Source: an uncultured Desulfobacter sp. (lineage in GTDB: Bacteria > Desulfobacterota > Desulfobacteria > Desulfobacterales > Desulfobacteraceae). From it: DNA of 64,000 nucleotides. Positions 4,530 through 28,117 of the stretch are shown here, piece after piece. Position numbers and translations under genes: made by a program. The DNA is taken from assembly GCA_963665095.1 (NCBI GenBank), contig OY762069.1, forward strand, positions 3,456,001 through 3,520,000, written 5' to 3'. Below the pieces are notes generated by a model. That model was not told where the DNA came from. It saw only the letters and a list, made by a program, of their open reading frames with translations, and searched no databases. Every line of letters begins with the position of its first letter. The first letter of the stretch is position 1.

Positions 4530-5024
4530 ATGTCCTATGTTATATGCTTAATTGACATTGACCATTTCAAACAAATAAATGACACATACGGCCATGAATA
4601 CGGCGACTCAGTCCTCAAGGAGATGTGCGCCCGGATTAAAAAAACAGTCAGAAAACAGGATATCTGTATCCGCTGGGGAGGCGAAGAGTTCCTTATTATA
4701 CTAAGGAACATCAACGCCCTATCTATCCGGGAAGCCACTCAACGTATTCAGACAGCTGTCTCATCAACTTCATTCTCCATTGGAAACCATGATCTCAGGG
4801 TAACGATCTCAGGCGGCATCTATCCGATCCTGCCCTGCTCTGTCGCCAACTTCACCGAAGTTGACACCCTTATAAACATTGCCGACAAAGCCCTTTATTA
4901 TGCCAAAACCAACGGACGGGATCAGTTTATCATGGCCGAGTGTGCGGACGATCTGCCTTGTACCAAAGTTGAGCGGTTTCAATCCACGCCCCCGCATGGA
5001 GGGCGACAATACACAACAATTTAA
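4530..5024 (+). CDS. Stand-alone, probably N-terminally truncated GGDEF diguanylate cyclase domain whose 3' end runs into the CRISPR array
   Basis: DIDHFKQINDTYGH, RWGGEEF, ADKALYYAKTNGRD; no sensor domain; stop lies in the first spacer; start uncertain. Confidence 0.7.
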   Translation: MSYVICLIDIDHFKQINDTYGHEYGDSVLKEMCARIKKTVRKQDICIRWGGEEFLIILRNINALSIREATQRIQTAVSSTSFSIGNHDLRVTISGGIYPILPCSVANFTEVDTLINIADKALYYAKTNGRDQFIMAECADDLPCTKVERFQSTPPHGGRQYTTI

Positions 5025-8000
5025 CTATTGGCAGCTTCCGTGTTTCAATCCACGCCCCCGCATGGAGGGCGACAATCGAATCAAGACTGTCTTTACAAAT
5101 AGGAGATGTTTCAATCCACGCCCCCGCATGGAGGGCGACAACTGTTCGCGATTATATCAGGGCGCATTTACTAGTTTCAATCCACGCCCCCGCATGGAGG
5201 GCGACACATCGTATTGTCTCCGTTTGCCGGGATCGGTTCCGTTTCAATCCACGCCCCCGCATGGAGGGCGACCATAAGGCCGGAAAAAATGTAAGTTTCC
5301 AAGCCGGTTTCAATCCACGCCCCCGCATGGAGGGCGACGTACATCTTTTATTCAGCATTCAGTCAGAATGCTGTTTCAATCCACACCCCCGCATGGAGGG
5401 CGACGCCCCACTTCAACCAATTTTTAAGGAGCAAAAATGTTTCAATCCACGCCCCCGCATGGAGGGCGACCTTTGAGATCACCAAAATCGCACCACTCAC
5501 TGTGTTTCAATCCACGCCCCCGCATGGAGGGCGACCTGTCGTCTGCCGCTGCCTGGCCTGATAATCATTGTTTCAATCCACGCCCCCGCATGGAGGGCGA
5601 CCTGTCCGGGTTTGGTTATTTGGCAAAAAAACCGGTTTCAATCCACGCCCCCGCATGGAGGGCGACTGAAAATAGTACATTTTGCAGATGTCCATTATGA
5701 TGTTTCAATCCACGCCCCCGCATGGAGGGCGACAAATCTCACTGTACACAAGGACCGCAGCATAATGGTTTCAATCCACGCCCCCGCATGGAGGGCGACC
5801 CAGCACGTCTGCCCCATCCAAATTGATATCGTCGTTTCAATCCACGCCCCCGCATGGAGGGCGACACTGATCTTTCTCCCGTCACAACACACCTAACAGG
5901 TTTCAATCCACGCCCCCGCATGGAGGGCGACGCGCCTATGGATCAAAACCAAACACTTCGCCAGGTTTCAATCCACGCCCCCGCATGGAGGGCGACCACG
6001 GAGAAAACCCCAAAGCCAAACTGCGGGTTGTTTCAATCCACGCCCCCGCATGGAGGGCGACAACAGTTCTGGCGATTTCCTTGACACGATAAACGTTTCA
6101 ATCCACGCCCCCGCATGGAGGGCGACAGCAGGTGATGTGGTGGCTGGAAAAACAATTGTGTGTTTCAATCCACGCCCCCGCATGGAGGGCGACGACCACC
6201 ATGAAGGTCCCTTCCAGCGGTGCCCAGTTTCAATCCACGCCCCCGCATGGAGGGCGACGTCAGAGTCCCACACCCGCCAGATCATCAAAGAAGTTTCAAT
6301 CCACGCCCCCGCATGGAGGGCGACATGATTTGGAGTATGCGCTTGACTGGGGGGCAGGTGTTTCAATCCACGCCCCCGCATGGAGGGCGACCAGCGTACC
6401 CACTACCATAATCTGATGAAAGTTGATGTTTCAATCCACGCCCCCGCATGGAGGGCGACATTTACTCATTGTCGTCTCTCCTTGTAAAAAATCGTTTCAA
6501 TCCACGCCCCCGCATGGAGGGCGACAAAGCTGCATAAAATGTGTTATATTTAGAGGCTTGTTTCAATCCACGCCCCCGCATGGAGGGCGACTTACTACCA
6601 AGCAACAAAAAATGTAGTAAATATTGTTTCAATCCACGCCCCCGCATGGAGGGCGACAGGCACTTGGAGTAGGATTGCCTGTTTTTCGACGTGTTTCAAT
6701 CCACGCCCCCGCATGGAGGGCGACTTATTTCCCGGCCCGTGTATGTTCCAACGGATTCGTTTCAATCCACGCCCCCGCATGGAGGGCGACAAGGACACAA
6801 ATTTTGACCGGTTAGCTTTTAGCCGTTTCAATCCACGCCCCCGCATGGAGGGCGACATAATTTTATGTTTATTTAGCCCTATCAATTCCCCGTTTCAATC
6901 CACGCCCCCGCATGGAGGGCGACTTTCGAAATATAGATGTGTTGCAAGCCAGTGACGGTTTCAATCCACGCCCCCGCATGGAGGGCGACCAGATGTTAAA
7001 AAAGGCCTGTTCTAATCCGCTTTCGTTTCAATCCACGCCCCCGCATGGAGGGCGACGTCCGGATCACTGACCGGCCCGCAGTCCGCTTTTGTTTCAATCC
7101 ACGCCCCCGCATGGAGGGCGACAAGCACCGCCGTCGTTACTATGTCTTTTGTCGATGTTTCAATCCACGCCCCCGCATGGAGGGCGACTTTGCCGAAGTC
7201 CAGCAAAAAGGCCCGCAGGTTTGTTTCAATCCACGCCCCCGCATGGAGGGCGACTTCGTTTTGCCATATCCTGTGTTACCCTGGTTCGTTTCAATCCACG
7301 CCCCCGCATGGAGGGCGACCGGCAATGCTGCCATCGGAATTACGGATATTCATCCGTTTCAATCCACGCCCCCGCATGGAGGGCGACGCCCCTGACTTTC
7401 GTGCTTCCGTCGAATTTGTTCTGTTTCAATCCACGCCCCCGCATGGAGGGCGACCTTTTTCAAGGTCCGGATGCAGTGGGACATTGCGGTTTCAATCCAC
7501 GCCCCCGCATGGAGGGCGACCCTCCATGATGGCCATGTTCGTCACTCCCACAGACGTTTCAATCCACGCCCCCGCATGGAGGGCGACAGTCAACAGAGTC
7601 CGACGGCCCGGCCACATGGATGTTTCAATCCACGCCCCCGCATGGAGGGCGACCGATACCGGTAATTTTCTTTCAACGGTCCACCTGTTTCAATCCACGC
7701 CCCCGCATGGAGGGCGACGCGTCACCAGACGGGGTAATTCCCGCGCCAGCCAGTTTCAATCCACGCCCCCGCATGGAGGGCGACAACTTCATACATGTCT
7801 CCGTTCAAAAGGAACGAGTTTCAATCCACGCCCCCGCATGGAGGGCGACCTGCTGGTGCGCGTGCCGGCCCCTTCATATTTACGTTTCAATCCACGCCCC
7901 CGCATGGAGGGCGACCTGCCCTCGGGCAATTCGTGCCGGTTCTGAAGGGTTTCAATCCACGCCCCCGCATGGAGGGCGACACCATCTGCCGATTAGATGT

Positions 8001-8841
8001 GATTAATACCAGTAGTTTCAATCCACGCCCCCGCATGGAGGGCGACTTGAGTTGAGGATATGGCAGAATAAATAGCAAAGGTTTCAATCCACGCCCCCGC
8101 ATGGAGGGCGACTAGGGGTTTTAACCGGTCTTGAGATCGCTTTTTTTGTTTCAATCCACGCCCCCGCATGGAGGGCGACTCCGGCAAGGGCCCGGGCATG
8201 ATCAAGTTTATTTGTTTCAATCCACGCCCCCGCATGGAGGGCGACGTGAAATTTTGGTTCGGCTGATTTCCCCCTGGTCTGTTTCAATCCACGCCCCCGC
8301 ATGGAGGGCGACCTACCGCCTCAAAAAACCAGGCCTCCTCTTCAGGTTTCAATCCACGCCCCCGCATGGAGGGCGACTCTGGCTAAAACAGGCTTTTTAG
8401 CCAGATCAGCCTGTTTCAATCCACGCCCCCGCATGGAGGGCGACATCCGGCACTGCGTTTGTGGGCCGGTTTTTTCCGTTTCAATCCACGCCCCCGCATG
8501 GAGGGCGACTTGTCATCCGTTGTTGGCCGTTGTTGTCATTGACGTTTCAATCCACGCCCCCGCATGGAGGGCGACGCATGTGACCGGCACAAACTGGTTG
8601 GCGTCGTCGGTTTCAATCCACGCCCCCGCATGGAGGGCGACCTGCCTAAAAGTGATGCCATGTTAATGGCATTCACTGTTTCAATCCACGCCCCCGCATG
8701 GAGGGCGACATCGTTAGAGCAAGACAGCGCATACTGGGTAGACGTTTCAATCCACGCCCCCGCATGGAGGGCGACACTGTTCCGGTTGTGACAGTTACAG
8801 AGCGAATCCGTTTCAATCCACGCCCCCGCATGGAGGGCGAC
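4976..8841 (-). CRISPR. Type I-C CRISPR array, leader-distal segment (about 59 repeats, 58 spacers)
   Basis: 32-bp repeat GTCGCCCTCCATGCGGGGGCGTGGATTGAAAC (minus strand) with spacers of about 32-36 bp; one repeat SNP in the unit at about 5373; manual count. Confidence 0.98.
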
Positions 8842-8998
8842 CTGGGTAAAAGCCCGTTTTTGAGAATGATCACAAAAAATCATGGAAAAATTAAAGATAA
8901 TTTGCAAGATATGCCAGGGATGAGGCAGAAGCTCCCCCGTTTATCTCGCAAATAATCAATGGAACTTCTGCCCCTATTACCCTAACAGGGCAGGAGAT

Positions 8999-9574
8999 AT
9001 GCTATCAGAACTTATTAAAAACAAAAATCTTTTTTTCCATCTTTACGAAATCGATAAAAATACAGCAAAACAGTACAGACAGTTGCCTTGTCCGCATTGT
9101 GGAGGCCCCTTATATTTCAGCAATTACATGCGCAAGCCCCGGGGAGAGCCTGAGGGCGTGCCGGAGGAATTCTTTATTCAGTTCAGCCTATGTTGTGGAA
9201 CCGAAGGGTGTCGCAAAAGATTGATGCCGCCGTCCTGCCGTTTTCTGGGGAGAAAAGTCTACTGGTTTGCAGTTATTCTGTGTGTTTTAACAGACTGGCA
9301 AAATACCAATGAAAAAATCACCGTTTATGATTTGTCCATACGAACTGGCATTAGCCGGAACACAATAAACCGCTGGCTTGCCTTTTTTCAGGATACATTT
9401 CCAGTGAGCCGAACCTGGCGAAGGCTTCGGGGGCAGATATCCGCTGGTGTCAGTAACAGCCGTCTGCCGTCAAGTTTCATCAATTATTGCCGGGCGGTGA
9501 AATCCAACGCCGAAAACGCACTTGTATCAAGCCTGATAATCTTATCAGGCGGGTCCAAAATCAGGGCCGGATAA
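8999..9574 (+). CDS. Transposon accessory protein with Zn-ribbon (CPHCGG…CC…GC) and HTH-like segment
   Basis: Cys pattern; GISRNTINRW helix-turn-helix-like segment; AGGAG RBS. Confidence 0.75.
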   Translation: MLSELIKNKNLFFHLYEIDKNTAKQYRQLPCPHCGGPLYFSNYMRKPRGEPEGVPEEFFIQFSLCCGTEGCRKRLMPPSCRFLGRKVYWFAVILCVLTDWQNTNEKITVYDLSIRTGISRNTINRWLAFFQDTFPVSRTWRRLRGQISAGVSNSRLPSSFINYCRAVKSNAENALVSSLIILSGGSKIRAG

Positions 9575-9680
9575 TCTCGCGCAGAGGATGAACATAGACA
9601 AATATATGCAGGCTGTTTTACCACCTGATTTCAGACGTTGATCCGAAATTTTAACCTGAAATTAAAAAGGAGCCTGATTT

Positions 9681-11126
9681 ATGAGTGGTAAAACACAGCA
9701 CCCGGCAGACCTGTGGGCATTATTTCGCTTTTCGGTTATCGGCGGTTTACTGGCACGCCCTCCGGCAAAGGGAGAGTTGCAAAATGAACTGACCCGGCTC
9801 GCAGGTCAAATCTATTCTCATCCTGTGACGAACAAACCGACCTGTTTTCATTTTTCCACAATTGAGGCCTGGTATTACAGGGCAAAAAATTGCCAGGACC
9901 CAATTCTGGCTCTGGGCCGTAAAGTTCGTTCAGATATGGGCAAATCCACAGCATTGAATGCTGAATTGATCCGCCTTCTTGGTGTCCAGTACAACACTTA
10001 TCCGCAATGGAGCTATCAGCTTCATTGCGACAACCTGGCAGCTGAAATCGCTGAACAGGGCCTGTGTGAGAATCCGCCGTCCTATGCAAGTGTGAGAAGG
10101 CGTATGGTTGAACGGGGTTGGAGAAAAAAGGCTTCCAAGAACAAAAATCAAACATCCGGACAGAAATCAGCTTTTAAGCGATTAGAAACGTATGAAGTCC
10201 GTAGTTATGAAACCGAAAACATCCATGAATTATGGCATCTGGACTTTCACGAATGCAGCAGGCGCGTGGTGGACGAAAAAGGTCAGTGGCATACGCCCAA
10301 GGCATTGTGCATTCTTGATGATCGCTCCCGTCTGTGTTGTCATATTCAATGGTATTTGAATGAAACGGCAGAGGTTTTGATCCACGGCTTGTCCCAGGCG
10401 TTTTACAAAAGAGGGCTTCCCAGAGCCTTGATGACAGATAATGGTTCTGCCATGATTGCTCATGAAACCGGCAACGGACTTAAACGATTGGGCGTCAGTC
10501 ATGAGACCACGTTGCCATACTCGCCCTATCAAAATGGGAAGCAGGAAGCCTTTTGGGGTACACTTGAAGGCCGTTTGATCGCCATGCTGAGCCGGATGGA
10601 TTCTTTGACCCTGGTATATTTAAATCAGGTCTCCCAGGCCTGGATCGAGATGGAATACAACAAGTCAACCCATGATGAAATTCATATGTCGCCATTGCAA
10701 TGCGCCCTTGACGGCAAGGATGTGTCACGTCCTGCACCGGAACCTGAACAGCTTCAATTTTCGTTTACAGCCTGTGAATCCAGAAAACAGCGTCTGTCCG
10801 ATGGTACCATCTCTTTGATGGGCATCCGGTTTGAAATCCCTTCACGGTTTAATCATATCCAGCGTCTTCATGTCTGTTTTTGCTCCTGGGATAAATCGGT
10901 TGCCTGGCTGATAGATAAACGAACCGGAAATAAGCTTGCCGCAATTTATCCCCAGGACAAGACAAAGAATGCTTCAGCAATCCGTCGTATCAAATCCACT
11001 CCGGATGAAATTAACCCTGGCCATGAAACCCTGTCCGGATCAGAACCGGCCCTGCTTAAAAAGCTCTTGTCCGATTATGCAGCAACCGGAATGCCTTGTG
11101 CCTACTTGCCAATGGAGGAAAAGTGA
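9681..11126 (+). CDS. DDE-type integrase/transposase (rve core, Mu/TnsB-like C-terminus)
   Basis: WHLDFH, ILDDRSR, TDNGSA, PYSPYQNGKQEAFW motifs. Confidence 0.92.
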   Translation: MSGKTQHPADLWALFRFSVIGGLLARPPAKGELQNELTRLAGQIYSHPVTNKPTCFHFSTIEAWYYRAKNCQDPILALGRKVRSDMGKSTALNAELIRLLGVQYNTYPQWSYQLHCDNLAAEIAEQGLCENPPSYASVRRRMVERGWRKKASKNKNQTSGQKSAFKRLETYEVRSYETENIHELWHLDFHECSRRVVDEKGQWHTPKALCILDDRSRLCCHIQWYLNETAEVLIHGLSQAFYKRGLPRALMTDNGSAMIAHETGNGLKRLGVSHETTLPYSPYQNGKQEAFWGTLEGRLIAMLSRMDSLTLVYLNQVSQAWIEMEYNKSTHDEIHMSPLQCALDGKDVSRPAPEPEQLQFSFTACESRKQRLSDGTISLMGIRFEIPSRFNHIQRLHVCFCSWDKSVAWLIDKRTGNKLAAIYPQDKTKNASAIRRIKSTPDEINPGHETLSGSEPALLKKLLSDYAATGMPCAYLPMEEK

Positions 11127-11950
11127 TGAACAGCAAACGATTATTGGCTTATTATGGATTGAAGTACAATCCTTTTTTACCAAATATTCCTGTGGACTCA
11201 TTATGGCATCCACCCCGGATGGAGGCATTTATTACACGCCTTGAAAATATGACCATGAACGGTGGATTTGCATTAATCGCCGGTGAACCCGGTCTTGGCA
11301 AATCCAAGACACTACAGGCGATTGCCCATCAGCTTGGCAAGCTTGATGAAGTCGTTGTCGGCGTTATGGAGCGCCCCCAAAGCAGCGTGGCCGATTTCTA
11401 TCGGGAAATGGGGACACTGTTTGGTGTCAATTTGAGTCCGGCCAACCGTTACGGAGGGTTCAAAGATCTGCGGCAACGATGGAAAAATCATATTAAAACA
11501 ACCCTGTTCAGACCCGTCCTGCTCATTGATGAGGCTCAGGAAATGCTTACCGGATGCCTGAATGAGCTTCGGTTGCTCAACAGTATGGATTTTGACTCCC
11601 AGAATTTATTGACCACCATTATCTGTGGTGATACCCGGCTGCCGGAACGGTTCAGAACCAGTGCATTGGTAGCCCTGGGGAGTCGACTCCGGTTCCGGTT
11701 AAAATTGGATCCTTATACCCGGGAAGAATTGTTGGATTATATAGCGCATTGCCTAAATCAGGCCGGAGCTCCTCAACTCATGACAAAACCTTTAATCACC
11801 GCTTTGGTAGAGCACTGTACAGGAAACTTACGGGTCCTCAATAATATGTCGGCAGAACTGCTTGAAGTGGGCGTTCAAAGAGAGCTGCCGCAACTGGATG
11901 AGAAACTTTTCATAGAGCTTTTTTCACTGAAACCGTCGCCAACCAGATAA
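11126..11950 (+). CDS. ExeA/TnsC-like AAA ATPase (transposition helper)
   Basis: Walker A GEPGLGKS, Walker B LLIDEAQ, YYGLKYNPF N-terminus; start overlaps the transposase stop. Confidence 0.9.
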   Translation: MNSKRLLAYYGLKYNPFLPNIPVDSLWHPPRMEAFITRLENMTMNGGFALIAGEPGLGKSKTLQAIAHQLGKLDEVVVGVMERPQSSVADFYREMGTLFGVNLSPANRYGGFKDLRQRWKNHIKTTLFRPVLLIDEAQEMLTGCLNELRLLNSMDFDSQNLLTTIICGDTRLPERFRTSALVALGSRLRFRLKLDPYTREELLDYIAHCLNQAGAPQLMTKPLITALVEHCTGNLRVLNNMSAELLEVGVQRELPQLDEKLFIELFSLKPSPTR

Positions 11951-11961
11951 GAGGTATAAAA

Positions 11962-12204
11962 ATGACAATCAATGAAACACAACTTGAAAAAACAATGGCT
12001 GAAATTGTCGACGAGCTGGGCAATCTGGTCATGGAGTTGATCCTTGTCAGTTTAAAAAAAATAAACTCGGAAAATCATCTTTTGACAGAATTGCTGGAGA
12101 TCAAACAAGAGGAACAAAGAGAAAATGAATTTTATGGTTTTGGTGAAACGGAGCCGGGACATCCTGGGGAGGAAACCCGGCAAGGGATAGCCAAAAGCAG
12201 GTAG
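11962..12204 (+). CDS. Small acidic hypothetical protein within the transposon
   Basis: 80-aa ORF with GAGG RBS, same operon. Confidence 0.6.
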   Translation: MTINETQLEKTMAEIVDELGNLVMELILVSLKKINSENHLLTELLEIKQEEQRENEFYGFGETEPGHPGEETRQGIAKSR

Positions 12205-12220
12205 CATTGAATAATGCGCC

Positions 12221-12252
12221 GGGGGAAGCGGGGTTGACCTGCTTCCCCTTTC
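12221..12252 (+). terminator. Putative intrinsic terminator of the transposon operon
   Basis: GGGGAAGCGGG…CCTGCTTCCCC stem followed by TTT. Confidence 0.55.
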
Positions 12253-12419
12253 TGTATTATTCAAGCTTTCCTGCTCATGCCTTAAAAAACCCAATAAAAT
12301 CAGTCGGAGCGCAGCGACATCTGCTAATCATTGAAAATACAGTTATGCCTTTCCCTGATTTATCCTGATTGTCGCTCCATTGATTATCGTGCTTCCTCTC
12401 ATTTTACCCAGATCGACCT

Positions 12420-15400
12420 GTTTCAATCCACGCCCCCGCATGGAGGGCGACACATTTGGACAGTCAACGGTGTAGAGATGGTTTTTGTTTCAATCCACGC
12501 CCCCGCATGGAGGGCGACCTTAGCTTTTAAATACGTAGCGCAGTTGAACAAGTTTCAATCCACGCCCCCGCATGGAGGGCGACCGAGTTTTTGATACCAT
12601 AATCGTTTACAAGGAGTGTTTCAATCCACGCCCCCGCATAGAGGGCGACTGCCTAAAAGTGATGCCATGTTAATGGCATTCACTGTTTCAATCCACGCCC
12701 CCGCATGGAGGGCGACCAGCAGGGCATAGTCAAACGGCACGTTCAAGGGCTTGTTTCAATCCACGCCCCCGCATGGAGGGCGACTCTGTGGATGTTTTAA
12801 GGGTTTGTTGTCAGAGTTTGTTTCAATCCACGCCCCCGCATGGAGGGCGACCGTAAAGAGCGAATTGCAGTTGATGAACGGCAGCGTTTCAATCCACGCC
12901 CCCGCATGGAGGGCGACACGGTGACCTTGATGCCGCTGATGATGTATGTGCCGTTTCAATCCACGCCCCCGCATGGAGGGCGACAAGTAACAACCGCTGG
13001 GACAAGAGTTGTTACACTGTTTCAATCCACGCCCCCGCATGGAGGGCGACCATTGTGCCCAACTTTAGGGCCAACGTGTCCCGTGTTTCAATCCACGCCC
13101 CCGCATGGAGGGCGACTATTTTCCCTGCCGGTGTGGGGCAAAAGGTTGATGTTTCAATCCACGCCCCCGCATGGAGGGCGACCATTGTGCCAAATTTTAG
13201 GGCTAACGTGTCCCGTGTTTCAATCCACGCCCCCGCATGGAGGGCGACATTATTTTTCAATCAATTCAATGTTTGTGGCGGTGTTTCAATCCACGCCCCC
13301 GCATGGAGGGCGACCAGAGTCACCAAGGGAGACTTGTTTAAGGGCTTGTTTCAATCCACGCCCCCGCATGGAGGGCGACACAAAAATTGTTACACTGCAG
13401 AGGAGGCAATAACGTTTCAATCCACGCCCCCGCATGGAGGGCGACCATCTGCAGCTCTTTTTTACCAGGGTCCATATACGTTTCAATCCACGCCCCCGCA
13501 TGGAGGGCGACCGTCAGGCGTGTCTGTGGGACATTAAGTATCACATGTTTCAATCCACGCCCCCGCATGGAGGGCGACCCAGACCCAGACCCAGACCCAG
13601 ACCAATGCTAAGTTTCAATCCACGCCCCCGCATGGAGGGCGACCACAAACCAGACCAAATCTGAGACCAATGCTAAGTTTCAATCCACGCCCCCGCATGG
13701 AGGGCGACCGTCGAAAAACAGACAATCCCGCTCCAAGTGCCTGTTTCAATCCACGCCCCCGCATGGAGGGCGACCAAGAGCTGTTACACTGCAGAGGAGG
13801 CAGCAACGTTTCAATCCACGCCCCCGCATGGAGGGCGACCCCAATGTTTTCAGTGACTTAGGAGCAATACTGCGTTTCAATCCACGCCCCCGCATGGAGG
13901 GCGACGCAAGCACTTTAGGGGTTTGTTGGCGGAGTTTGAGTTTCAATCCACGCCCCCGCATGGAGGGCGACGCGCGAAGAGAGGCGCTGGATTCGTTTCC
14001 TTCCCGTTTCAATCCACGCCCCCGCATGGAGGGCGACCTGCAGCCTTTTCTTTGGGGGAAGTAGAGTCATTGTTTCAATCCACGCCCCCGCATGGAGGGC
14101 GACTCCCGTTTGGCGCTGAATTCAGCGCTGAGGTGTACGTTTCAATCCACGCCCCCGCATGGAGGGCGACGCCTAAAAGTGATGCCACGTTAATGGCATT
14201 CACTGTTTCAATCCACGCCCCCGCATGGAGGGCGACACTACTGGCCATTGTGCCAAATTTTAGGGCCAACGTTTCAATCCACGCCCCCGCATGGAGGGCG
14301 ACACCTTTTGCTGCTGGCGTTCCTGTCATAGTTATTCGTTTCAATCCACGCCCCCGCATGGAGGGCGACCCGCATGGCTTTCACTGCTTCCCATGTTCCA
14401 GGCGTTTCAATCCACGCCCCCGCATGGAGGGCGACCGCATGGCTTTCACTGCTTCCCATGTTCTATGCGTTTCAATCCACGCCCCCGCATGGAGGGCGAC
14501 ATAGGTGATCCCGATTTTCCAGACCTGCAATATGTTTCAATCCACGCCCCCGCATGGAGGGCGACACCCAACCAAACCGGGTTAAAAGCGGACAAAACCG
14601 TTTCAATCCACGCCCCCGCATGGAGGGCGACGACTATAGGCCGCTTAAATCAGGCGGGATCAGCTGTTTCAATCCACGCCCCCGCATGGAGGGCGACCCA
14701 AATGTTCCAGCTGTTCCGGCTGTTACAACGTGTTTCAATCCACGCCCCCGCATGGAGGGCGACGCGACTTTGATGCCGCCGAGGACGTATGTGCTGTTTC
14801 AATCCACGCCCCCGCATGGAGGGCGACCCCAATGTTTTCAGGGACTTAGGAGCAATACTGCGTTTCAATCCACGCCCCCGCATGGAGGGCGACTTTCTCT
14901 TTCAGCTACTCCGATGTCCCAGTCCACGTTTCAATCCACGCCCCCGCATGGAGGGCGACATTATTCAGCCTCCCCCATCACCCGGTACCGGCCGTTTCAA
15001 TCCACGCCCCCGCATGGAGGGCGACAGGGCGGGATTTGAACCCGCGATGTGCTGAGGGGTTTCAATCCACGCCCCCGCATGGAGGGCGACCTGGTTGTGA
15101 GCTGGTAAGCAAGCGCCAGCTCACGTTTCAATCCACGCCCCCGCATGGAGGGCGACAACTTGCTCCCATGCCCTACTACTCCAAGCCCGTGTTTCAATCC
15201 ACGCCCCCGCATGGAGGGCGACTCGCGGCAGCGGCCGTGATACCGCCCCTGTCACCGTTTCAATCCACGCCCCCGCATGGAGGGCGACCCAATGTTTTCA
15301 GGGACTTAGGAGCAATACTGCGTTTCAATCCACGCCCCCGCATGGAGGGCGACGCTCTAATTTGCAGTATAGATAACTATACCGCCGGTTTCAATCCACG

Positions 15401-16276
15401 CCCCCGCATGGAGGGCGACTTGTCATGAAGATAGACGCGCTTATAGACAAAATGTTTCAATCCACGCCCCCGCATGGAGGGCGACAAGACCCACGCCCCG
15501 CCTTTTGTCTCCACATCCTGTTTCAATCCACGCCCCCGCATGGAGGGCGACCGCCGGACTTGCGGAAATATTACCGGGTGGTCAGGTTTCAATCCACGCC
15601 CCCGCATGGAGGGCGACTGGGCGCGTTCAAAAAAGACAAACCACTTTTCAGGTTTCAATCCACGCCCCCGCATGGAGGGCGACTCGCGATTGCTATTTGA
15701 GGCTTTATATCGCGGTTGTTTCAATCCACGCCCCCGCATGGAGGGCGACCAGCCCGGTTAGTTGGTGCACCTACCTGCGTGGTCGTTTCAATCCACGCCC
15801 CCGCATGGAGGGCGACTCTTCAATCCCGTTCATAATGAGATTGTTTTAAGCGTTTCAATCCACGCCCCCGCATGGAGGGCGACGTAGAGCATAGTCAAAC
15901 GACCTGTTCAAAGCTTTGTTTCAATCCACGCCCCCGCATGGAGGGCGACCGCCAGGCATATGAAACGGATGAACAGTATGAAGTTTCAATCCACGCCCCC
16001 GCATGGAGGGCGACCAAGATTTTTTTCAAACAACTGTGCCTTCTCCCGTTTCAATCCACGCCCCCGCATGGAGGGCGACTGTCAGGCACCACAACATCCT
16101 CTGCAGGTGTCGTGTTTCAATCCACGCCCCCGCATGGAGGGCGACCCCAAAATACGCTATACAGATGGAAAAGCACTTGTTTCAATCCACGCCCCCGCAT
16201 GGAGGGCGACACCCGCAACCGGTCTATGGATGTTTTAAAGGCCCGTTTCAATCCACGCCCCCGCATGGAGGGCGAC
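12420..16276 (-). CRISPR. Type I-C CRISPR array, leader-proximal segment (about 59 repeats, 58 spacers)
   Basis: Same 32-bp repeat; one repeat SNP in the unit at about 12618; adjacent to leader and cas2. Confidence 0.98.
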
Positions 16277-19822: not shown

Positions 19823-19886
19823 GATGCATTTTCCAAATTTGGAAAAAAACAAAAAAACTGCATTTTTTGCAATGAAAATATAATTT

Positions 19887-20702
19887 CTATTGTTTTAGGC
19901 TCCGGTTTCTTTGTTTTTCATGGACCTCATCCACAAGATCCATGGACACTTTCCAGACCTGTTCACAAAAGGCTGAAAACGCGTTTAACGCCTCCGGTTC
20001 CGGCAACAGTTCACCACCACCTTGAATCTGTCCGACAGCGTAATGATACTGGGACAGTGCATCAATATAGGTTTTGCGCGCTTCCTTTGGCACAATGACG
20101 GGCGGCAGGCCCGCCTTTAAGACCGGCAGGTTGGCAACAAGTCTTGCCATCCTGCCGTTACCATCAAAAAAGGGATGAATGTGAACAAAGGAGACATGAA
20201 GAGCAACATAAGCCTGCAATGCCGTTTCTCTATCCCCGGGCACAGTTGATGACATAAGCTTATGATAGAGCGTAAACCACTTTTCCATAAGTTGGGGGAC
20301 ATCTTCGGGCAATGCATACTCAAAGACCACCTGTTTCTCATCCACCACGCCCACAGTGGAGTTGGGCTCTTTTTTCCAGCCCCCCACAGGTTTGTATATA
20401 TCAACAACCACATGGGTCTGAACCGCTTTGTGAAGATTGAACAGCGCCTCTTCATCAAAAGATCCCCCCTGGTCCAGCAATCCATAAACCAGATCAATGG
20501 CCCTGGCATGACCCACCACCTCCTCATGGTCCTTGAGGGGCTTGCCCGAAACGGTCAAGCCCTCTTCAAGAACAAAGGCGGTTTCACCCAAAGTCAGGGA
20601 GTTGCCCTCAATGGCTGTGGAGGTGTGGGTCCACAGGTTGCGCAGCTGGGTTATCAGGGCTTTTTGGAGGTCTTTGTCAAGATCCTGTAAAAAATAAAGC
20701 AT
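19887..20702 (-). CDS. Fic-family protein inserted in the cas operon
   Basis: Canonical HPFFDGNGRMAR motif; N-terminal STAIEGN inhibitory-type motif. Confidence 0.92.
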   Translation of the reverse strand: MLYFLQDLDKDLQKALITQLRNLWTHTSTAIEGNSLTLGETAFVLEEGLTVSGKPLKDHEEVVGHARAIDLVYGLLDQGGSFDEEALFNLHKAVQTHVVVDIYKPVGGWKKEPNSTVGVVDEKQVVFEYALPEDVPQLMEKWFTLYHKLMSSTVPGDRETALQAYVALHVSFVHIHPFFDGNGRMARLVANLPVLKAGLPPVIVPKEARKTYIDALSQYHYAVGQIQGGGELLPEPEALNAFSAFCEQVWKVSMDLVDEVHEKQRNRSLKQ

Positions 20703-20732: not shown

Positions 20733-21596
20733 TTACATCAATTCCTGAAAGGTGACACCGCTGGGGATCTTGTCTTTATCTATAGAGACAGAATAATCAC
20801 TAAATTGACGAGCAGGTCTGGAAGAGTCTTCCCGTTCGATTTTTATCGTATCAAAAAGTGTATGCGCGTGGGCATTGCCCAGCTCGCTATCATGCTTGAA
20901 GACAATCAACTTACGGCTGCTCATAAATCCACGGGCGGCGGAGCGGTCATGTTCAAACATGTTGCTCAAAGCATTCCAAAGTAGCTCCAGGTCTTCACCG
21001 CTAAAACCTGTTTTAGAAGCTAAAGGAGCTGAGATAAATCCTTTTGACATATACAAACCATAGGGGACGATATGTTTCCGCCCCATGGTCCTTTCTTTTT
21101 CCAGATCTCTTAAATTTGTGACTGCCATGCGAGTAATACTGATTTCCTGGGAAAAAATCGGCTCTACGCTTTTAGCAAAAGCGAATTGGACAGGCCCCCT
21201 GACTTGACCACAATTAACTTCGGTGGTCATTACTGCCCCAAAGGCTCTCACATCGAAAAAATTACTGCACATCCAGCCGGTAACTTTTTTAGCATCTTCT
21301 TCTTTTTTAGGAAGCTTTTTTTTCTGAGGTTCAAGATCATATTCTTTATAGGCCAATTTGTTGGTTTCATTGAGTACAGCTTTTTCTTGAATATAAATAT
21401 TATATCCCGGTTTGCCGTCCATAAGAATTGAAACATGATTTCTTATTTTACGTTTGAGGCAGACATCGGTTACCAGGCCGTACCCGGTTTCAGGATCAAA
21501 CCGGGGCAAATTCCCTGCATCAGGGTCACCATTGGGGTTCCCGTTTTCAACATCAAACAGCAGCACAAATTCGTACCGGTTAGCAATCGCAGTCAT
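20733..21596 (-). CDS. cas7: Type I-C Cas7/Csd2
   Basis: [45 protein letters not shown]. Confidence 0.97.
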
Positions 21597-21599
21597 GAT

Positions 21600-23366
21600 T
21601 TAAACCTCCTCATTTTTTTTAGTAAAAAAGCTTTTACGCTGATGATAGTATCCAATCATAAAAAGCCCTTGCGCCTCTGCAGGAAGTGTTGCCGGGAAAG
21701 CGTCAAACTTATCCACGATTTCCTGAACCAGTCTTTCAAAATAGGTTGCCCGTCCCGTTTTTTCAGGATCTTTTCTAAGCTTAGCAATATGATTGGTTGA
21801 ATTCTTTAAAATCATGTGGAAAACAAGTCCCGGTGTAGCCGAAGCAGATGAAAGATAACGGTCTTTCATGGTTGCATTGGCACCGGGAATCGCCTCTTCC
21901 TGTGCTTTTTCCAAAACTGAAAAAAGACGACCCAATAGATACGATCCATCGGTTCTCTCAATGTCCAGCGTCATGGTTACCTCCTTTAAATTAGTCGCGG
22001 TTGAATTGCGCATAAGAAAAGCTTTAAGCATAGCAGCTCGAAAATAGGTTATATTGTGTTCACTGCGAATACGTTGAAGAACAAGCGGTAACAAATTCTG
22101 CGGAAAAGCAGAACCTGTTAAAATTGCGCGGGCCATGTTGCCTGCCAATACCGGTGAAACATTCTCACTTTTCCCTTGAGAAGCTGTTTGACAGAGCAGA
22201 CGCCAAAGCGGCGGGTATTCAGGCTCATTTTCGAACTGCCTTGCAATGGAAAGCTGGTCAAAGTAATTACTTATTCTTTTTAACAGGTTGCCGAAACTGT
22301 CCACTTCCCAAAAACGAATGGAAAGTCGGGCTGCATTGGGCGATAATCCTAAAATAAAAAACCGAATCGAATCATCCAGGTCCGGCATTATATCTGTTAC
22401 TCTACGGCCGTCTTTGACCGCACGTAAAAGCCCACGTATCTTTTCGGCTGTTTCCTGGTCATCCTGGTTCTTTTTCGAGGGATCTGTTTCTATTTCAGGA
22501 GGATCAAAAAGATCCGCAAAAAGGTCTTCAGCCGGACTGGGTTTTTCAGCCCAGAAAACCAGCGTCATGTCGCCGATGGTAATATGCTGGCGGCTATTAG
22601 ACGATAACAGTGAGTTTAAGGCTGTGGTATAGGCAAAGGCTGACATTTCACTTACAGCAGCTTTATCTTGCCCATAGGAGACAAATGCCGTTGCATTGTA
22701 TGAAACGATATACCCCCCTGATGTTTGCCCTCCCCTGACTCCTTTTATCGGGGTATGAACTCTGGCTTGGGGGACATCTTTTTCACCATTGACCATACAT
22801 TGGATACTGGGAGCGCTGTTTGACTGCTCAACGTATTTCAACCAGGCGTTGCGGACAAGGCTTCGCTCATGAATATAACCGGTGGTTCCATCCAGCCGAA
22901 ATACAAAATTAGCGTTACACAGGTCATCCCAGGAATGATATTCTATAAGCACAGATTCAGTTTCCTGGCTATTCCATTGCTGGAGAAAGGCTAACACGGC
23001 GTGAATAGCGTTATCTTCTATGCCTTGGCACACTTCGCTGATTAATCCTTGAAAAGCTTCAAACCGCGATCTATTATCATCTGTAGGCCCATCGGAATCA
23101 GCCCCCAGCACATAGGCCGCCTTATCCCACAAAAAATTGGCTTTTACACCAGATGTCCTGGTAACTGCGGCTGGCACAGGGATCATTCTGGGGATTAATT
23201 TCCTTCCACTTTGTTCCCTTAAATCATCCACGCCCTTGAGTGATCCTTTATCATCAATAATCAAGGCAAATGAGATCTTCTCAATACTTGTGCCAAACGG
23301 CGGCATCCCGGAGTCTGAGTCTGCAGCCACTCTTTCATAGTAACTGTTTAAGGCCTGGAGAATCAT
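21600..23366 (-). CDS. cas8c: Type I-C Cas8c/Csd1
   Basis: [43 protein letters not shown]. Confidence 0.96.
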
Positions 23367-24028
23367 GATTTTACCTCCGAAGATAAAGGAGAGGGCGGTC
23401 TGATAATTCCGTTTTCCATAACAGCTTTAAAAAAAAGAGGGGTTTGATTGTTATTAAAATCTATGTCCAGCAACATATACCCCAAATCCTTAGAGTATCC
23501 GTTATAGCAAGAGACCGGAATTTCATCTTCCAGCAGTTCGAAAGCGGCGGGGAACTCCCGGCATCCTAAGCACGGCTGATGAAAAAACTGCCCATTTTGT
23601 GCCCGTCTGTTAAAGATACTCAGATGCTTGCCTTCGTTATCATCACTACCGGCCTTATCCGTCATTTCAAAATGCGCCTCAATGATATAAGCGACGTCCC
23701 TGAGCAGGGTAGTCGCACGCTGCTGTCTGTTTTTACCGTCATCGACAAGATAATAAAGACGTTTTTCCTTGCTCATAACCGTGGAGGGATTAGGTTTAGG
23801 AATCTTAGACGCCACTTCATTGCGGCGGACATTATCGAATTTAATAGGATTTAAAACGTGTATTTTATCAATGACCCAACGAATAGCCGGCTTCCAATGA
23901 ATTGCTTCCAGAATACCTCGAGCGGCCGAGGGCGTCATAACATCATAAGATACACGTTCCACTTTCATCTCCGGGCGGGTAAAGCAGGCATAATCGCCCC
24001 AGACCTTCAACTTGATTCCAAATGCCAT
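23363..24028 (-). CDS. cas5: Type I-C Cas5c (crRNA-processing nuclease)
   Basis: [37 protein letters not shown] 24028 after AAGGAG RBS. Confidence 0.97.
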
Positions 24029-24050
24029 AAATTGTCTCCTTTTTAGAGAT

Positions 24051-24090
24051 TGCAGGCCATAAATATCATCTGTTTTATAAATGGCCTGCA
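24051..24090. repeat. 10-bp perfect inverted repeat (hairpin) closing the mini-guide RNA, just upstream of the cas5 RBS
   Basis: TGCAGGCCAT (24051-24060) / ATGGCCTGCA (24081-24090). Confidence 0.7.
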
Positions 24091-24146
24091 TGCCCTAGCT
24101 GCTTCTACCTAATGTTTCAATCCACATTCCCGTATTCGGAAACGAC
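24051..24146 (-). ncRNA. Candidate CRISPR-like regulatory RNA (CreA/CreR-like): solitary diverged repeat + 23-nt guide + hairpin
   Basis: Repeat GTCGTTTCCGAATACGGGAATGTGGATTGAAAC (24114-24146, minus) keeps the 3' handle and hairpin; guide ATTAGGTAGAAGCAGCTAGGGCA (24091-24113) matches the PAM-flanked site 24305-24324. Confidence 0.85.
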
Positions 24147-24154
24147 ATATCCTT

Positions 24155-24229
24155 TTATGGGGACTCCAAAACGAGTTCAACATCAAACAGTTCTTTTCCC
24201 CAAATGGCTATTTTAAGCTTTATCCGCAT
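24155..24229 (-). CDS. Unannotated 24-aa peptide MRIKLKIAIWGKELFDVELVLESP (candidate CRISPR-repressed toxin or leader peptide)
   Basis: Strong SD GAGGGGGG (24235-24242) 5 nt before ATG; stop 8 nt before the diverged repeat; lies directly downstream of the promoter. Confidence 0.6.
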   Translation of the reverse strand: MRIKLKIAIWGKELFDVELVLESP

Positions 24230-24262
24230 ATGATCCCCCCTCTTTAAATTAATTGCATATTA

Positions 24263-24291
24263 AAAATAGAAGGGAAAAAGTTAATAGTCAA
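24263..24291 (-). promoter_or_regulatory. Sigma70-type promoter for peptide ORF, mini-crRNA and cas5-cas8c-cas7
   Basis: TTGACT (24286-24291) - N17 - TATTTT (24263-24268) on the minus strand. Confidence 0.7.
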
Positions 24292-24301
24292 GAATAAATT
24301 A

Positions 24302-24324
24302 TTCATTAGTTAGAATAAGCTTGG
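24302..24324 (+). promoter_or_regulatory. Cascade target site of the mini-guide (TTC PAM + partial protospacer)
   Basis: TTC then ATTAGTTAGAATAAGCTTGG versus guide ATTAGGTAGAAGCAGCTAGG: 16/20, mismatches at 6, 12, 13, 18. Confidence 0.8.
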
Positions 24325-24331
24325 TAACTAA

Positions 24332-26521
24332 TCATTGAATTAAACTTCCAACGTCCCAAACATCTGCACGGTCAATCATCAAGCCCACATCACCGCTATA
24401 CGCCCCCTTATTTTGTAATATCGGGATCTCGTCATGAATTAGTTCAATTGCTCCTACAGTATACAACTTGGTGTATTCTCCGGCCCTAACAGCAACCAGA
24501 TAGGGTTGAAGTTTTCTAAGCAGAATCCCTGGAAATTCTGTGTACCTAAGCTGTTCAACCAATTGCTCTGCTTCTGGTTCCCCGGGCACCACAACGCCAA
24601 TCGTATCGTCTTCAATAAACCGAAAATCCCGGGCAACCTCCTTGAAAGGGAACAAAAGATCTTTATCAAGTATCTTGGGATTTAAACGGCGCATGATCTG
24701 TTTCTTATCCAGATCTTCGATGTCATAAAGCAGTTCAAAATAACGCCGCATCACCTGAGTACTCATAGGATCATATTCCGGCATACAGCGTATTGCCTCA
24801 GCGGTTTTCGAAATACACCTGTTAAGCCAGGGCATCCGAGGCTTTTTTTCCGGTTCAAAAATAAAAACCTGCCCAAGCCCTTTCATCTTGCCCTCTCGAT
24901 TACAACGACCGGCAGCCTGAGCAATGGAATCCAAACCAGAGATGGCCCTGAAAACAACCGGAAAATCCAAATCAACCCCAGCCTCCACAAGAGAAGTGGC
25001 AACCACCACACATTTTTTATTTTCACGCAAACGCCGCCTTATTCTCTTAAATATCTGCCTCCGATGCTGTGGATACATATTTGTGGATAAATGAAAAATC
25101 CCGACATTTTTTTTATTTAACAACTCGAATATTTTCCGGGCTTGTGATTTTGTGGCGGCAATACACAACGCCTGGTTCTCAAAATTCATAAGCTGCGCAA
25201 TTTCTTCATCCGTTTTTTTCCCGATAAAAGAGACATTGGTGCGCTTTAATTTTGAAAAAATTAGGTCTGGCTCATCAATTATTTCTTTAATTTGCGGCAA
25301 AGCTGACCGTAAACGACTGGTATCATCAAAGGCCGGTTGAGTTGCTGTGCATAAGACGACGGTACAACCGTAGTGAGCCACCAATTCCCGAAGGGCGGCA
25401 AGGCAAGGTTCTAGATAATCAGCCGGGACGGCCTGTGCTTCGTCTATCACAATAACACTTCGAGCAATATTGTGAAGTTTACGGCAACGGGAAGATTTAT
25501 TATTAAAAAGGGATTCAAAGAATTGTACATTGGTGGTGACTATAATCGGGCAATCCCAATTTTCTGTGGCCAATCCCCGTCGCCGGTTATAAGCAGCCTC
25601 TTCGGGTTCATCAGATTCTTTATAATTGCAATGATGTTCGAGAACTGAATTTCTCCCAAAAATATTTTGGAAAACTCCTGCATTCTGTTCAATGATTGAG
25701 GTGAAAGGAATCGTATAAATTATTCTGTCCATACCATTTTCGACCGCATGATCTAAAGCGAAACTCATGGAAGACAACGTTTTTCCGCCACCTGTCGGCA
25801 CTGTGAAAGAAAAAAACTGTGGCGGTAATTGGGCTTTTCCTTTGCATTGGCCGAATATAATCCTTCGAAGCTTGTTCACATGGGTCGGCTGAGCGCTTGC
25901 AAGAATATCATTCATGTAAATTTCCATCTTGCGTTGAAGCTCAGATATGTTTTTTTCTTGCTGGAATCGCCCCCTTTCTTTTGCAATTTCGGGGGCACAA
26001 AATTTTTCAGTATCTAAAAAGTCAGCGTCAACAAGGCAGGAAAAAATCATTCGAGTAAAAAATGACAAAGAAAAGCCCCCAGTTTCTCTTTCCAGTTTAA
26101 ATGGGAAGTCTAATTTTTTAAGATACGGGTTTATTAAATCAAGTTTTTCAGTTTCATGAGAATTGTTATGCTTTAACCGAAAATGCAACTGTGTCTCCTG
26201 CTCTCCACCGTCAGGAATCCCACCATGATGGCCCGCAATTGCATAAGATAAGAGCAGGCCAAGATTACCACTGCTTTCCTTTGCCAGGCAAGCACCAAAG
26301 GAGGAATGGTCCACTCGTTCTGGACTACCCTCCAATCTTCGTTGAAAAGCTAAAGTTGCTTTTCCGGCATCATGCAGTAATCCAGCCAAATTCCCCCATT
26401 TTTTTGCCTCGAAAGTTCCCGAAAAACAACCCGCCATATTGGCAACATTCGTCAGATGAGTTTCCAGAAGCTGCCATTCTTTTTTTGGTCTCTCTTGTAA
26501 ACTGTGTGCGTAGTATTTCAT
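24332..26521 (-). CDS. cas3: Cas3 HD nuclease-helicase
   Basis: YAHS…LLHDAGK, AGHHGG, LVDADFLDT, PTGGGKT, IDEAQ, QAAGRCNR; ATG 26521 after GGAGAGG. Confidence 0.97.
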   Translation of the reverse strand: MKYYAHSLQERPKKEWQLLETHLTNVANMAGCFSGTFEAKKWGNLAGLLHDAGKATLAFQRRLEGSPERVDHSSFGACLAKESSGNLGLLLSYAIAGHHGGIPDGGEQETQLHFRLKHNNSHETEKLDLINPYLKKLDFPFKLERETGGFSLSFFTRMIFSCLVDADFLDTEKFCAPEIAKERGRFQQEKNISELQRKMEIYMNDILASAQPTHVNKLRRIIFGQCKGKAQLPPQFFSFTVPTGGGKTLSSMSFALDHAVENGMDRIIYTIPFTSIIEQNAGVFQNIFGRNSVLEHHCNYKESDEPEEAAYNRRRGLATENWDCPIIVTTNVQFFESLFNNKSSRCRKLHNIARSVIVIDEAQAVPADYLEPCLAALRELVAHYGCTVVLCTATQPAFDDTSRLRSALPQIKEIIDEPDLIFSKLKRTNVSFIGKKTDEEIAQLMNFENQALCIAATKSQARKIFELLNKKNVGIFHLSTNMYPQHRRQIFKRIRRRLRENKKCVVVATSLVEAGVDLDFPVVFRAISGLDSIAQAAGRCNREGKMKGLGQVFIFEPEKKPRMPWLNRCISKTAEAIRCMPEYDPMSTQVMRRYFELLYDIEDLDKKQIMRRLNPKILDKDLLFPFKEVARDFRFIEDDTIGVVVPGEPEAEQLVEQLRYTEFPGILLRKLQPYLVAVRAGEYTKLYTVGAIELIHDEIPILQNKGAYSGDVGLMIDRADVWDVGSLIQ

Positions 26522-26869
26522 TCCTCTCCACAGACATTCCCTTTGTGGTAAGCAAACTGAGTTCAAGCCATTGGTAAATTAAATCATTTTAACTTACTGA
26601 AAGGGACATTTTTTATAACGTTAAAAAACAACCAGTTCAAAATTTCCAATAGACAATGCTGCACCTGCTTCTAAAATCCCTGCTCGTCTATCCGTTCCAT
26701 TTGACCTTCCAGAAACTTGCTCAACACAGGATCACGAGGCAAGCCCAAGTTTATCAACGGCAACTTTTCTTGTCAGAAAAGGTTTGATTGAGTTTAGCAG
26801 AGCCGGGGCTGTGACTACTCCCTCATCAAATTTTTAAAATGTGCTGGCTCATAAGGTTCCTTTAATGCA

Positions 26870-28006
26870 TTATATTTTTACAAGCTTTATCTCCTCGATC
26901 ATTGTGTTAATCTCTTTGATCTCCTGCTGGGCGGATTCGACCCCGGCGGCGGTGGTCAACAGGTCGAAAAACCGCCCATTGGCATTGAGTATCCGGCGGG
27001 AAGCGTCAGGTTCGCTATAATCGGTCCGGCTGTAGTGGGTTTCTATTTTCTGTTCAAAGTCATTGCGTAAATTTATTGTGATCAGGTCCAGCTCCACAAG
27101 CCGGTAAAGAAAGGCCTGGGTTGAAATACCGAATCTGTGTTTGATACGCAGCAGAAGCTCCCAGGTCCAGGTGGAAGGGCTTACGCCCAGCTGGGCCACG
27201 GTGGCTTTTACTGCGGTGTCAGGCATGAGAAAGGTGGCAGCGAAATGTTTGGCCGCCCGCATGGACTTAATGGGGCGCGGGTCGTCCGGTGTTGGGGCTT
27301 TTTCCGGGAAAAGCGTGTCTTTGCGATGGGTCATCTGGTTGAAAATCAGGATCTTTCCCAGTTCGGCAGCCAGGCTGAACAGCTGCTTTTCCGGGTTCTT
27401 GCGCGTGTTGATGAAAAAGAAGGCGTTTTGATGGGTGGGTTCATAAAAGGAAACCGACTCAAGATCCTGGGCGGACCGCATAAAAGGAAATAAAAGAACC
27501 CGCAATCCGAAATTTTCAAACAGCTCAAGGTAATCAAATACCACAGCATCGCCTGTGCCCATGGCGGTTCTGATCCGGGCGGCCAGGGCCTCCATGCCGG
27601 TGTATTCCGGGTCAAAGGGAAGAGATAAGGGAATGGTGGCGTGTTTCTGGACCCCGAGAATATCCTCCAGGGAATGGAATGCGGCCATGAGATCCCGGCA
27701 GGCAGACAACAGGGCTTTGGGTGGCACCGCCGCATCCGGTTCAATGGTTACCAGGGCGGCACTGGTATCCTGGGCGGCAGCTCCGGCACGGGACGTATCC
27801 GGGGCAAACAAAGCATTGGCAGGGACATCCAGTGCCTGGGTCAGGTTGAATATCACTGTGGCCGAAGGCAAATTCTCACCGCGTTCGATGCGGCCCAGGG
27901 GACCTTCCTGGATACCGATTTTGGAAGCTAACTGAGCCAGAGTCCAGTTGCGTGAGCAGCGGAAAAACCGGATATTTTTTCCAATGAATGTTAAGTCCTG
28001 TGACAT
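26870..28006 (-). CDS. XRE-family HTH regulator fused to ImmA/IrrE (DUF955)-like domain with degenerate HExxH
   Basis: N-terminal IGKNIRFFR…TLAQLASKIG…IERGE; FSLAAELGK in place of FTLAHELGH; AKHFAATFLMP. Confidence 0.8.
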   Translation of the reverse strand: MSQDLTFIGKNIRFFRCSRNWTLAQLASKIGIQEGPLGRIERGENLPSATVIFNLTQALDVPANALFAPDTSRAGAAAQDTSAALVTIEPDAAVPPKALLSACRDLMAAFHSLEDILGVQKHATIPLSLPFDPEYTGMEALAARIRTAMGTGDAVVFDYLELFENFGLRVLLFPFMRSAQDLESVSFYEPTHQNAFFFINTRKNPEKQLFSLAAELGKILIFNQMTHRKDTLFPEKAPTPDDPRPIKSMRAAKHFAATFLMPDTAVKATVAQLGVSPSTWTWELLLRIKHRFGISTQAFLYRLVELDLITINLRNDFEQKIETHYSRTDYSEPDASRRILNANGRFFDLLTTAAGVESAQQEIKEINTMIEEIKLVKI

Positions 28007-28117
28007 GACGCCATACAATCATAGCATTACTTCTATGTCAATAATTAATGATATTATTCATAAAAGTGATACTTATGTAAGATTTTATAGGAATTTCATA
28101 CCCGGCCTGATAACCGG

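Follow-up and report, generated by a model that had tools for sequence, protein, structure and literature searches.

What does a complete type I-C CRISPR–Cas system keep in the gap between its cas3 and cas5c genes? In the window, a 64,000-nt stretch of the genome of an uncultured Desulfobacter sp., such a system lies on the minus strand in the order cas3, a 303-bp gap, cas5c, cas8c, cas7c, a Fic gene, an AAA ATPase gene, cas4, cas1, cas2 and the array, and the gap had been predicted to hold a hidden mini-crRNA that points Cascade at its own promoter. Two questions follow: whether such an RNA represses the effector genes, and what is carried along on the repressed transcript. The autorepression reading gained support from the analyses below; the peptide of the presumably repressed transcript, which the original prediction named in passing only, is the least-explained part of the locus.

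Anatomy of the cas3–cas5c gap

The features of the locus are as follows, in the direction of transcription of the cas genes.

24332..26566, minus strand: cas3 (HD nuclease plus helicase; TIGR01587 and TIGR01596 above cut-off), its stop 7 bp short of the target
24305..24324, plus strand: protospacer-like target (16/20; best TTC site in the genome)
24302..24304, plus strand: TTC PAM (TTC stands at the best unconstrained match in 40/51 related loci, compared with 116/2,550 cross pairs)
24263..24291, minus strand: predicted sigma-70 promoter TTGACT-N17-TATTTT (pattern scan; -35-like hexamer conserved in relatives)
24235..24242, minus strand: ribosome-binding site of the small ORF (from its sequence; GGAGG-type sites in the same place in relatives)
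24155..24229, minus strand: 24-codon ORF ending Glu-Ser-Pro-stop (15 loci, same length, pN/pS 0.38, no in-frame stops)
24114..24146, minus strand: diverged solitary repeat with an 8-bp stem and intact handle (handle count, fold)
24091..24113, minus strand: 23-nt guide, pairing limited to the first 20 nt
24051..24090, minus strand: 3' hairpin with a 10-bp stem, replacing a second repeat (z -3.7 for 24020-24092)
24035..24049, minus strand: short hairpin covering the cas5c ribosome-binding site (fold)
23363..24028, minus strand: cas5c, 221 aa (TIGR01876; relatives align across residues 1-221)
21600..23366, minus strand: cas8c (TIGR01863)
20733..21596, minus strand: cas7c (TIGR02589)
4976..16276, minus strand: CRISPR array of 118 repeats, split by an insertion element (repeat positions)

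The lone 33-nt minus-strand repeat of the original prediction is present at 24114-24146, 7.8 kb from the array, and its 3' handle is indeed intact: the exact 12-nt handle occurs 119 times in the window, as the 118 array repeats (4976-16276) and the solitary copy. The repeat stem is likewise preserved, with 8 bp running up to the last 11 nt as the 7 bp of the array repeat do, although the fold of the solitary repeat alone is only moderately unusual (z -1.6). Cas5c is predicted to cut between 24125 and 24124, and the RNA is predicted to end in the loop of the 3' hairpin, near 24075; related loci, too, have a hairpin after their guides. None of the 116 array spacers has the sequence of the window guide (best 12/20). 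Contigs of three public runs, which may include the source of the window, are near-identical over this stretch (0, 0 and 1 differences, none of them in the element), and the Rfam search gave two matches only, both at chance level (E 0.21 and 0.78). The start of cas5c is 24028, the 24091 of the ORF caller being incorrect, and the closest named Cas5c is that of Desulfobacter curvatus (L024, 91%). An anti-SD stem similar to the one over the cas5c ribosome-binding site is found in most loci that carry the small ORF and is weak or absent in a few.

The claimed guide match was recovered as described, with 16/20 positions at 24305-24324, mismatches at 6, 12, 13 and 18 and TTC at 24302-24304; here the RNA would base-pair to the minus strand, the sense strand of the cas genes. 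When positions 6, 12 and 18 are omitted the target matches at 16/17, while the next-best TTC-flanked site on both strands of the 6.9-Mb genome reaches 13/17, and 20,000 shuffles of the intergenic region gave no score of 14 of 17 or more. The TTGACT-N17-TATTTT promoter, claimed to lie about 10 bp from the target, was found at 24291-24263 with its -35 box 10 bp from the PAM; it matches the consensus at 9/12 positions, and its transcription start is inferred to be near 24256. By itself the promoter scan does no better than chance (3 found, 2.7 expected), and the call is supported instead because the spacing of 8-11 bp between PAM and -35 is conserved in relatives: a -35-like hexamer, chosen among pattern candidates, stands 8-11 bp from the PAM in 13/14 loci with the small ORF. 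A second, weak promoter candidate (24327-24298) overlaps the target. From the PAM to the start site, which is a predicted one here, there are 46 bp, compared with 37-46 bp in CRISIS.

Several further features of the surroundings were recorded. Within the array, a 3.6-kb insertion (8842-12419) carries three ORFs on the plus strand (191, 481 and 284 aa); their sequences resemble a transposase plus ATPase. The Fic-domain gene (19887-20702), 31 bp after cas7c, has an intact HPFFDGNGR motif and is PDC-S04-like in PADLOC, and an AbiLi-like AAA ATPase gene (18545-19852) also lies within the cas operon; both may share the repressed transcript. A fic gene is also found 3' of cas7 in close loci that have no solitary repeat with its guide and target (hereafter the module). 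Directly upstream of cas3 is a gene for an HTH plus IrrE/ImmA-type peptidase (26870-28018; RmrA- or CapP-like in PADLOC). Among the 116 array spacers there is no full-length self-targeting spacer; the best, s50, matches its own chromosome at 27/29 positions (G000:C1:2275774-2275802), possibly a partial self or prophage target.

Guide and target in related type I-C loci

Loci were gathered by Cas5c similarity from relatives, GTDB contigs and metagenomes (two sets, the best 80 of 548 and of 540), and 20 further loci were added from pattern matches. Removal of 31 without a Cas5c motif or upstream ORF from the resulting 203 left 172, of which 162 are distinct; its position was the basis for calling the upstream ORF cas3, with tblastn confirmation in the close set only. 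The gap before cas5c is short in 103 of these loci and long in 59, and 51/59 long gaps hold a handle on the same strand.

Alignment for guide/target co-variation, a check proposed with the original prediction, came out in favour of it: 38/51 loci (window included) have a TTC-flanked target with at least 12/15 matches in their own upstream DNA, compared with 27/2,550 pairs in the cross-locus control. The 38 co-varying loci have 36 distinct guides with a mean identity of 0.32, and because the guides differ among loci, simple shared descent of one match is ruled out; the loci are nevertheless kin, not independent, and were chosen by Cas5 similarity, and the counts are not p-values. When each of the 17 positions has the same weight and a PAM is not demanded, 41/50 loci reach 12/17, and 38 of these have TTC, against a looser PAM-free control in which 245/2,450 cross pairs reach 12/17. 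Mismatches across the 41 loci fall at position 6 in 31, position 12 in 27 and position 18 in 35, but in only 0-6 at each of the other positions from 1 to 11; every sixth guide base is described as unpaired (10.1101/2023.03.03.530964, 10.64898/2026.06.02.729485, 10.1101/2024.12.27.630466). The target is oriented as in the window in 33/38 loci and is direct rather than inverted in 5/38.

Among the 13 failing loci, five reach 14-15/16 when one guide base (5/6 or 12) is left unpaired, one has TTT, and two (L060 and L100) have the module on the opposite strand. The unpaired base is at position 6 in L129, L135 and L138, at 5/6 in L188 and at 12 in L074, a pattern which suggests that Cascade may tolerate target deletions at flipped-out guide positions; guide bulges at positions 6 or 12 were not found described in the literature, as covered by open texts without supplements.

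Could guide and target be functionless relics, left by a decayed piece of an array or by an ancient insertion element of which they were the inverted ends? The imperfect inverted repeat on DNA around 190 bp, the patchy occurrence of the module and a deletion between target and guide in L005 would fit such an origin, but we consider it highly improbable because TTC is conserved, the mismatches recur at 6, 12 and 18, 36 guides co-vary with their targets and the orientation is direct in 5/38 loci. Very little credence can likewise be given to a decoy that soaks up Cas5c and Cas7 and lowers immunity without targeting DNA: a solitary repeat, intact handle and short spacer recall Racrs, which published accounts describe as solitary repeat units, but the element is chromosomal, lies within the cas operon and has a selected, PAM-flanked target, and viral contigs gave no match to handle plus guide (nor to peptide end plus handle).

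The module is very probably a type I-C crRNA-like regulatory RNA in a negative feedback loop, with the small ORF as co-repressed cargo. Besides the co-variation, which shows the sequence requirements of targeting, the autorepression reading draws on an anatomy equal to that of I-C solitary-repeat RNAs whose processing and repression are among the tested results of bioRxiv 10.1101/2024.12.27.630466. Judging from the layout, one minus-strand promoter would yield a single transcript of the 24-codon ORF, the diverged repeat, the guide, the hairpin and cas5c-cas8c-cas7c. As in the tested I-C homologues, Cas5c would cut at the base of the repeat stem to leave an 11-nt handle on an RNA of about 50 nt, with its 3' end in the downstream hairpin. 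Cascade would then sit on the TTC-flanked target, 10 bp ahead of the -35 box, where pairing over about 17-20 nt would block RNA polymerase without licensing Cas3 to cleave; were crRNAs to titrate Cascade, or anti-CRISPRs to block it, the promoter would open, and Cascade and the small ORF would rise together. The repeat stem would stay on the ORF mRNA after the Cas5c cut and could serve there as a toxin hairpin. The regulatory mechanism is already known, and the new part is the peptide cargo.

The 24-codon ORF and other cargo

The small ORF is unannotated. Its family, mostly in Thermodesulfobacteriota, comprises 14 of the 51 handle loci together with L209, 15 loci in all, in each of which it lies between promoter and repeat and is 75 nt long, with no indels and no in-frame stops. 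Its pN/pS is 0.38 in frame, compared with 0.94 and 3.0 in the other forward frames and 0.48 in the reverse frame that shares codon positions, and conservation by codon position is 0.75, 0.86 and 0.60, third positions being the most variable. The small ORF is thereby shown to be a real coding sequence under purifying selection. The encoded peptide has a strict hydrophobic alternation, a basic first half, an invariant turn at Gly11 and an acidic second half, which suggests an amphipathic beta-hairpin. It ends in Glu-Pro-Pro-stop at 14/15 loci and in Glu-Ser-Pro-stop in the window; a Pro-Pro end is found in 4/4,643 long ORFs of the same genome. The last codon is CCA in 15/15, followed by TAG in 11 and TAA in 4, and CCA makes up 11% of Pro codons and 31% of terminal Pro codons in the long ORFs of that genome. 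The window peptide is the most divergent of the 15 (34 bits in leave-one-out scoring, 36-59 for the others), its Ser-Pro change is present in the contigs of the three public runs, and this copy may be attenuated.

Whole-genome profile searches found the peptide confined to cas3–cas5c gaps in the genomes searched, with one match in its own genome, three full-length and one weak internal match in 121 genomes, two in 251 and two in 401; L209 was the sole new locus. There was no match to the peptide in Pfam (three members), in PADLOC (window copy) or in a PDB profile search, and PHROGs (14 members) gave two weak single-member matches only (E 0.049 and 0.18). A tblastn search of plasmids and phages with one member returned nothing useful, 0/8 peptide sequences were present in a 15-billion-protein collection, and the parts inspected of three viral Cas5c loci held no such peptide. 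Open texts in the literature gave no description of this 24-aa peptide family, although supplementary tables could list such loci. A degenerate pattern of Pro-Pro-stop plus handle matched in 19/401 genomes, with a Cas5c motif at one locus only (L114); eight other matches that were inspected proved to be array spacers or unrelated sequence.

The slot between promoter and repeat has other contents elsewhere. By a longest-ORF heuristic, which misclassifies some loci, 47 module loci include nine without an ORF of at least 20 aa, 17 with unrelated membrane-type ORFs of 35-65 aa and seven others. The ORF-less versions (L029, L032, L035, L043 and L136) fit CreR. At least four groups of 50-65-aa ORFs, delimited by eye, have a strand-like N-terminus and one hydrophobic helix (L063, L074, L091 and L098; L138, L139, L144, L145 and L182; L156, L161 and L170; L085, L101, L181 and L184). 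Fifteen of the longer cargo ORFs had no Pfam match, and one compared with the Atlas gave weak matches only (0.83 or less); the 50-65-aa ORFs are candidate micro-toxins. At two alphaproteobacterial loci (L060:9806-9886(-) and L100:9794-9874(-)) the complete module runs opposite to the cas genes, and a 26-aa ORF has four Arg at its start and Leu-Glu-Pro-Ile at its end. This ORF is an uncertain homologue of the 24-aa family (HHalign probability 38%), and its profile matched 1/401 genomes, its own source. Since the module points away from cas5 at these loci, it is the ORF, and not cas5, that has stayed downstream of the repressed promoter.

The module is dispensable, because 103/162 loci are without it, including the closest relatives (L002-L004 and L124). 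Its occurrence on a 40-sequence Cas5 tree is patchy, with 10 changes for the 15 peptide loci, a number as low in 57/500 shuffles. In a genome of the same genus (G006, loci L005 and L213) the DNA between target and guide is deleted while the 3' hairpin remains, and cas5c is broken by an element of 131 bp that has terminal inverted repeats and is accompanied by a 10-bp target duplication; loss of the module together with a broken cas5c is as addiction would predict, in a single case. Broken Cascade genes were seen at 0/15 peptide loci, several of which are cut by contig ends, and at two module-less loci (L005 and L128), numbers too few to speak to addiction in a sample biased to intact Cas5.

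What the peptide ORF does can be read in several ways. Our leading guess, tentatively held, is a CreT-type toxin that would stall ribosomes at Pro-Pro-stop, its Ser-Pro copy in the window being possibly weakened. In E. coli, stalling and tmRNA tagging are favoured when Pro-Pro or Glu-Pro precedes the stop codon, and Ser-Pro is not among the dipeptides listed in the relevant text (PMC3985003, PMC13410324). A cis-acting leader, in which ribosomes pausing at Pro-stop upstream of the repeat stem tune Cas5c processing, transcript stability or cas5c read-through, is possible but doubtful; the module would then be a CreR autoregulator with translational tuning. The stop codon does lie 28-34 nt ahead of the handle in 12/14 loci, CCA is last in 15/15 while other four-fold sites vary (pointing to constraint at the RNA or tRNA level), the window tolerates Ser-Pro, and ORF-less versions exist. 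However, amino-acid conservation runs through the whole peptide, with its hydrophobic alternation and its basic and then acidic half, the same slot holds the unrelated 35-65-aa membrane-type ORFs at 17/47 loci and defence genes in CRISIS, and single-sequence folds reveal no shared long-range structure. Long-range pairing of the CCA-stop with start codons was considered and dropped, as the single-sequence folds disagree across loci.

That the peptide product itself is toxic in the manner of CreP, acting as an amphipathic beta-hairpin through oligomerisation or a binding partner, with the prolines as no more than its C-terminal cap, we consider unlikely. Purifying selection on residues 1-22, the invariant Gly11 turn and the complementary charges of the two halves would suit it, as would the similar-looking L060 and L100 peptides ending in Glu-Pro-Ile and the window copy, which keeps the pattern; but homology to those two peptides is uncertain, the databases named above gave no Pfam, PADLOC or PDB match and only the two weak PHROG matches, and the invariant CCA before TAG or TAA is left unexplained. 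Some other function, or none, is a still fainter prospect. In its fuller form, the guess of a ribosome-stalling toxin is that the ORFs may be an undescribed Cascade-repressed I-C toxin family that jams termination (rare CCA, mostly TAG), convergent with the I-F proline-codon toxin and with a nascent peptide under selection, a conjecture we offer with the same reserve. A single Cas5c cut on one transcript would then free both a hairpin-capped toxin mRNA and its own antitoxin guide, and the window would be a natural Pro-to-Ser variant, en route from a toxin–antitoxin pair to a plain autoregulator.

Significance and comparison with known systems

The regulatory RNA is a well-supported added example of a known mechanism, and the cargo matters more. 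Annotated genes were the starting point of searches for CRISPR-supervised genes, and gene calling usually passes over ORFs of such a size. If the peptide family is toxic, a gap of 300 bp conceals an anti-anti-CRISPR layer of type I-C systems, and two CRISPR subtypes make use of Pro-Pro-stop toxins. The 35-65-aa membrane-type ORFs found in the slot elsewhere may be a pool of overlooked micro-toxins, and the natural Pro-Pro, Ser-Pro and ORF-less variants make a ready series on how toxin–antitoxin guards become autoregulators.

The closest known systems are the I-C crlRNAs of bioRxiv 10.1101/2024.12.27.630466. There, a solitary repeat ahead of cas5c is processed by Cas5c to an RNA of 48-50 nt that carries an 11-nt handle and stops within a hairpin loop; cargo promoters are repressed 5- to 60-fold, with start sites 37-46 bp from the target; and the genes supervised are those of Nezha, Gabija and CRISIS. 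The window shares with them a repeat unit directly before cas5c, the stem, the 11-nt handle, a 3' hairpin in place of a second repeat, a TTC PAM, mismatches at 6 and 12 and a target by the -35 box of a cargo promoter, here a predicted one, between cas3 and cas5c. It differs in that their cargo consists of enzymes or membrane defence proteins whereas here it is a 24-codon ORF, and the words 'peptide' and 'small ORF' are absent from the main text of that report.

CreR was named, and creA-like I-C elements were found by manual search, in bioRxiv 10.1101/2023.03.10.532045, and mini-arrays were surveyed in bioRxiv 10.1101/2023.03.03.530964. In both, as probably here, a degenerate mini-CRISPR sends the effector to the promoter from which its own genes are expressed. 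CreR is, however, defined as lacking a toxin gene (10.1101/2023.03.10.532045), whereas a conserved ORF stands here behind the predicted repressed promoter, which sets this locus apart from a stand-alone CreR. The tests in the text of these two reports were made in I-B, I-E, V-A and I-F1 systems, and the mini-array is opposite to cas3 in the I-E and I-F1 examples but co-oriented with it here. Racrs are solitary repeats of mobile elements without a selected host target, in contrast to a chromosomal cas operon with a co-varying target and no viral match; phage RNAs are predicted to hijack I-C circuits (bioRxiv 10.1101/2024.10.29.618823).

Two type I-F systems bear on the cargo. In CrePA (bioRxiv 10.1101/2024.01.05.574328), as probably here, a gene between cas3 and the effector genes is under crlRNA control, and there it is a toxin that provides anti-anti-CRISPR defence; CreP, however, is a 103-aa KilA-C protein with no detected similarity to the 24-aa peptide. 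In P. aeruginosa, a Cascade-repressed SD plus mini-ORF ending in Pro-Pro-stop, followed by a hairpin, is a toxin, and a non-synonymous change of either Pro abolishes toxicity (bioRxiv 10.64898/2026.06.02.729485, whose open text does not mention type I-C). Common to that I-F CreT and the module described here are a repressed promoter (presumably so here), a strong SD, Pro-Pro-stop (in 14/15 members, the window being the exception), a downstream hairpin and the position between cas3 and the effector genes. The mini-ORF of CreT is, by contrast, 15 nt long and ends in CCT-CCG, and synonymous Pro codons work in it, whereas the type I-C ORF is 75 nt long in all 15 loci, with 24 conserved codons and an invariant CCA.
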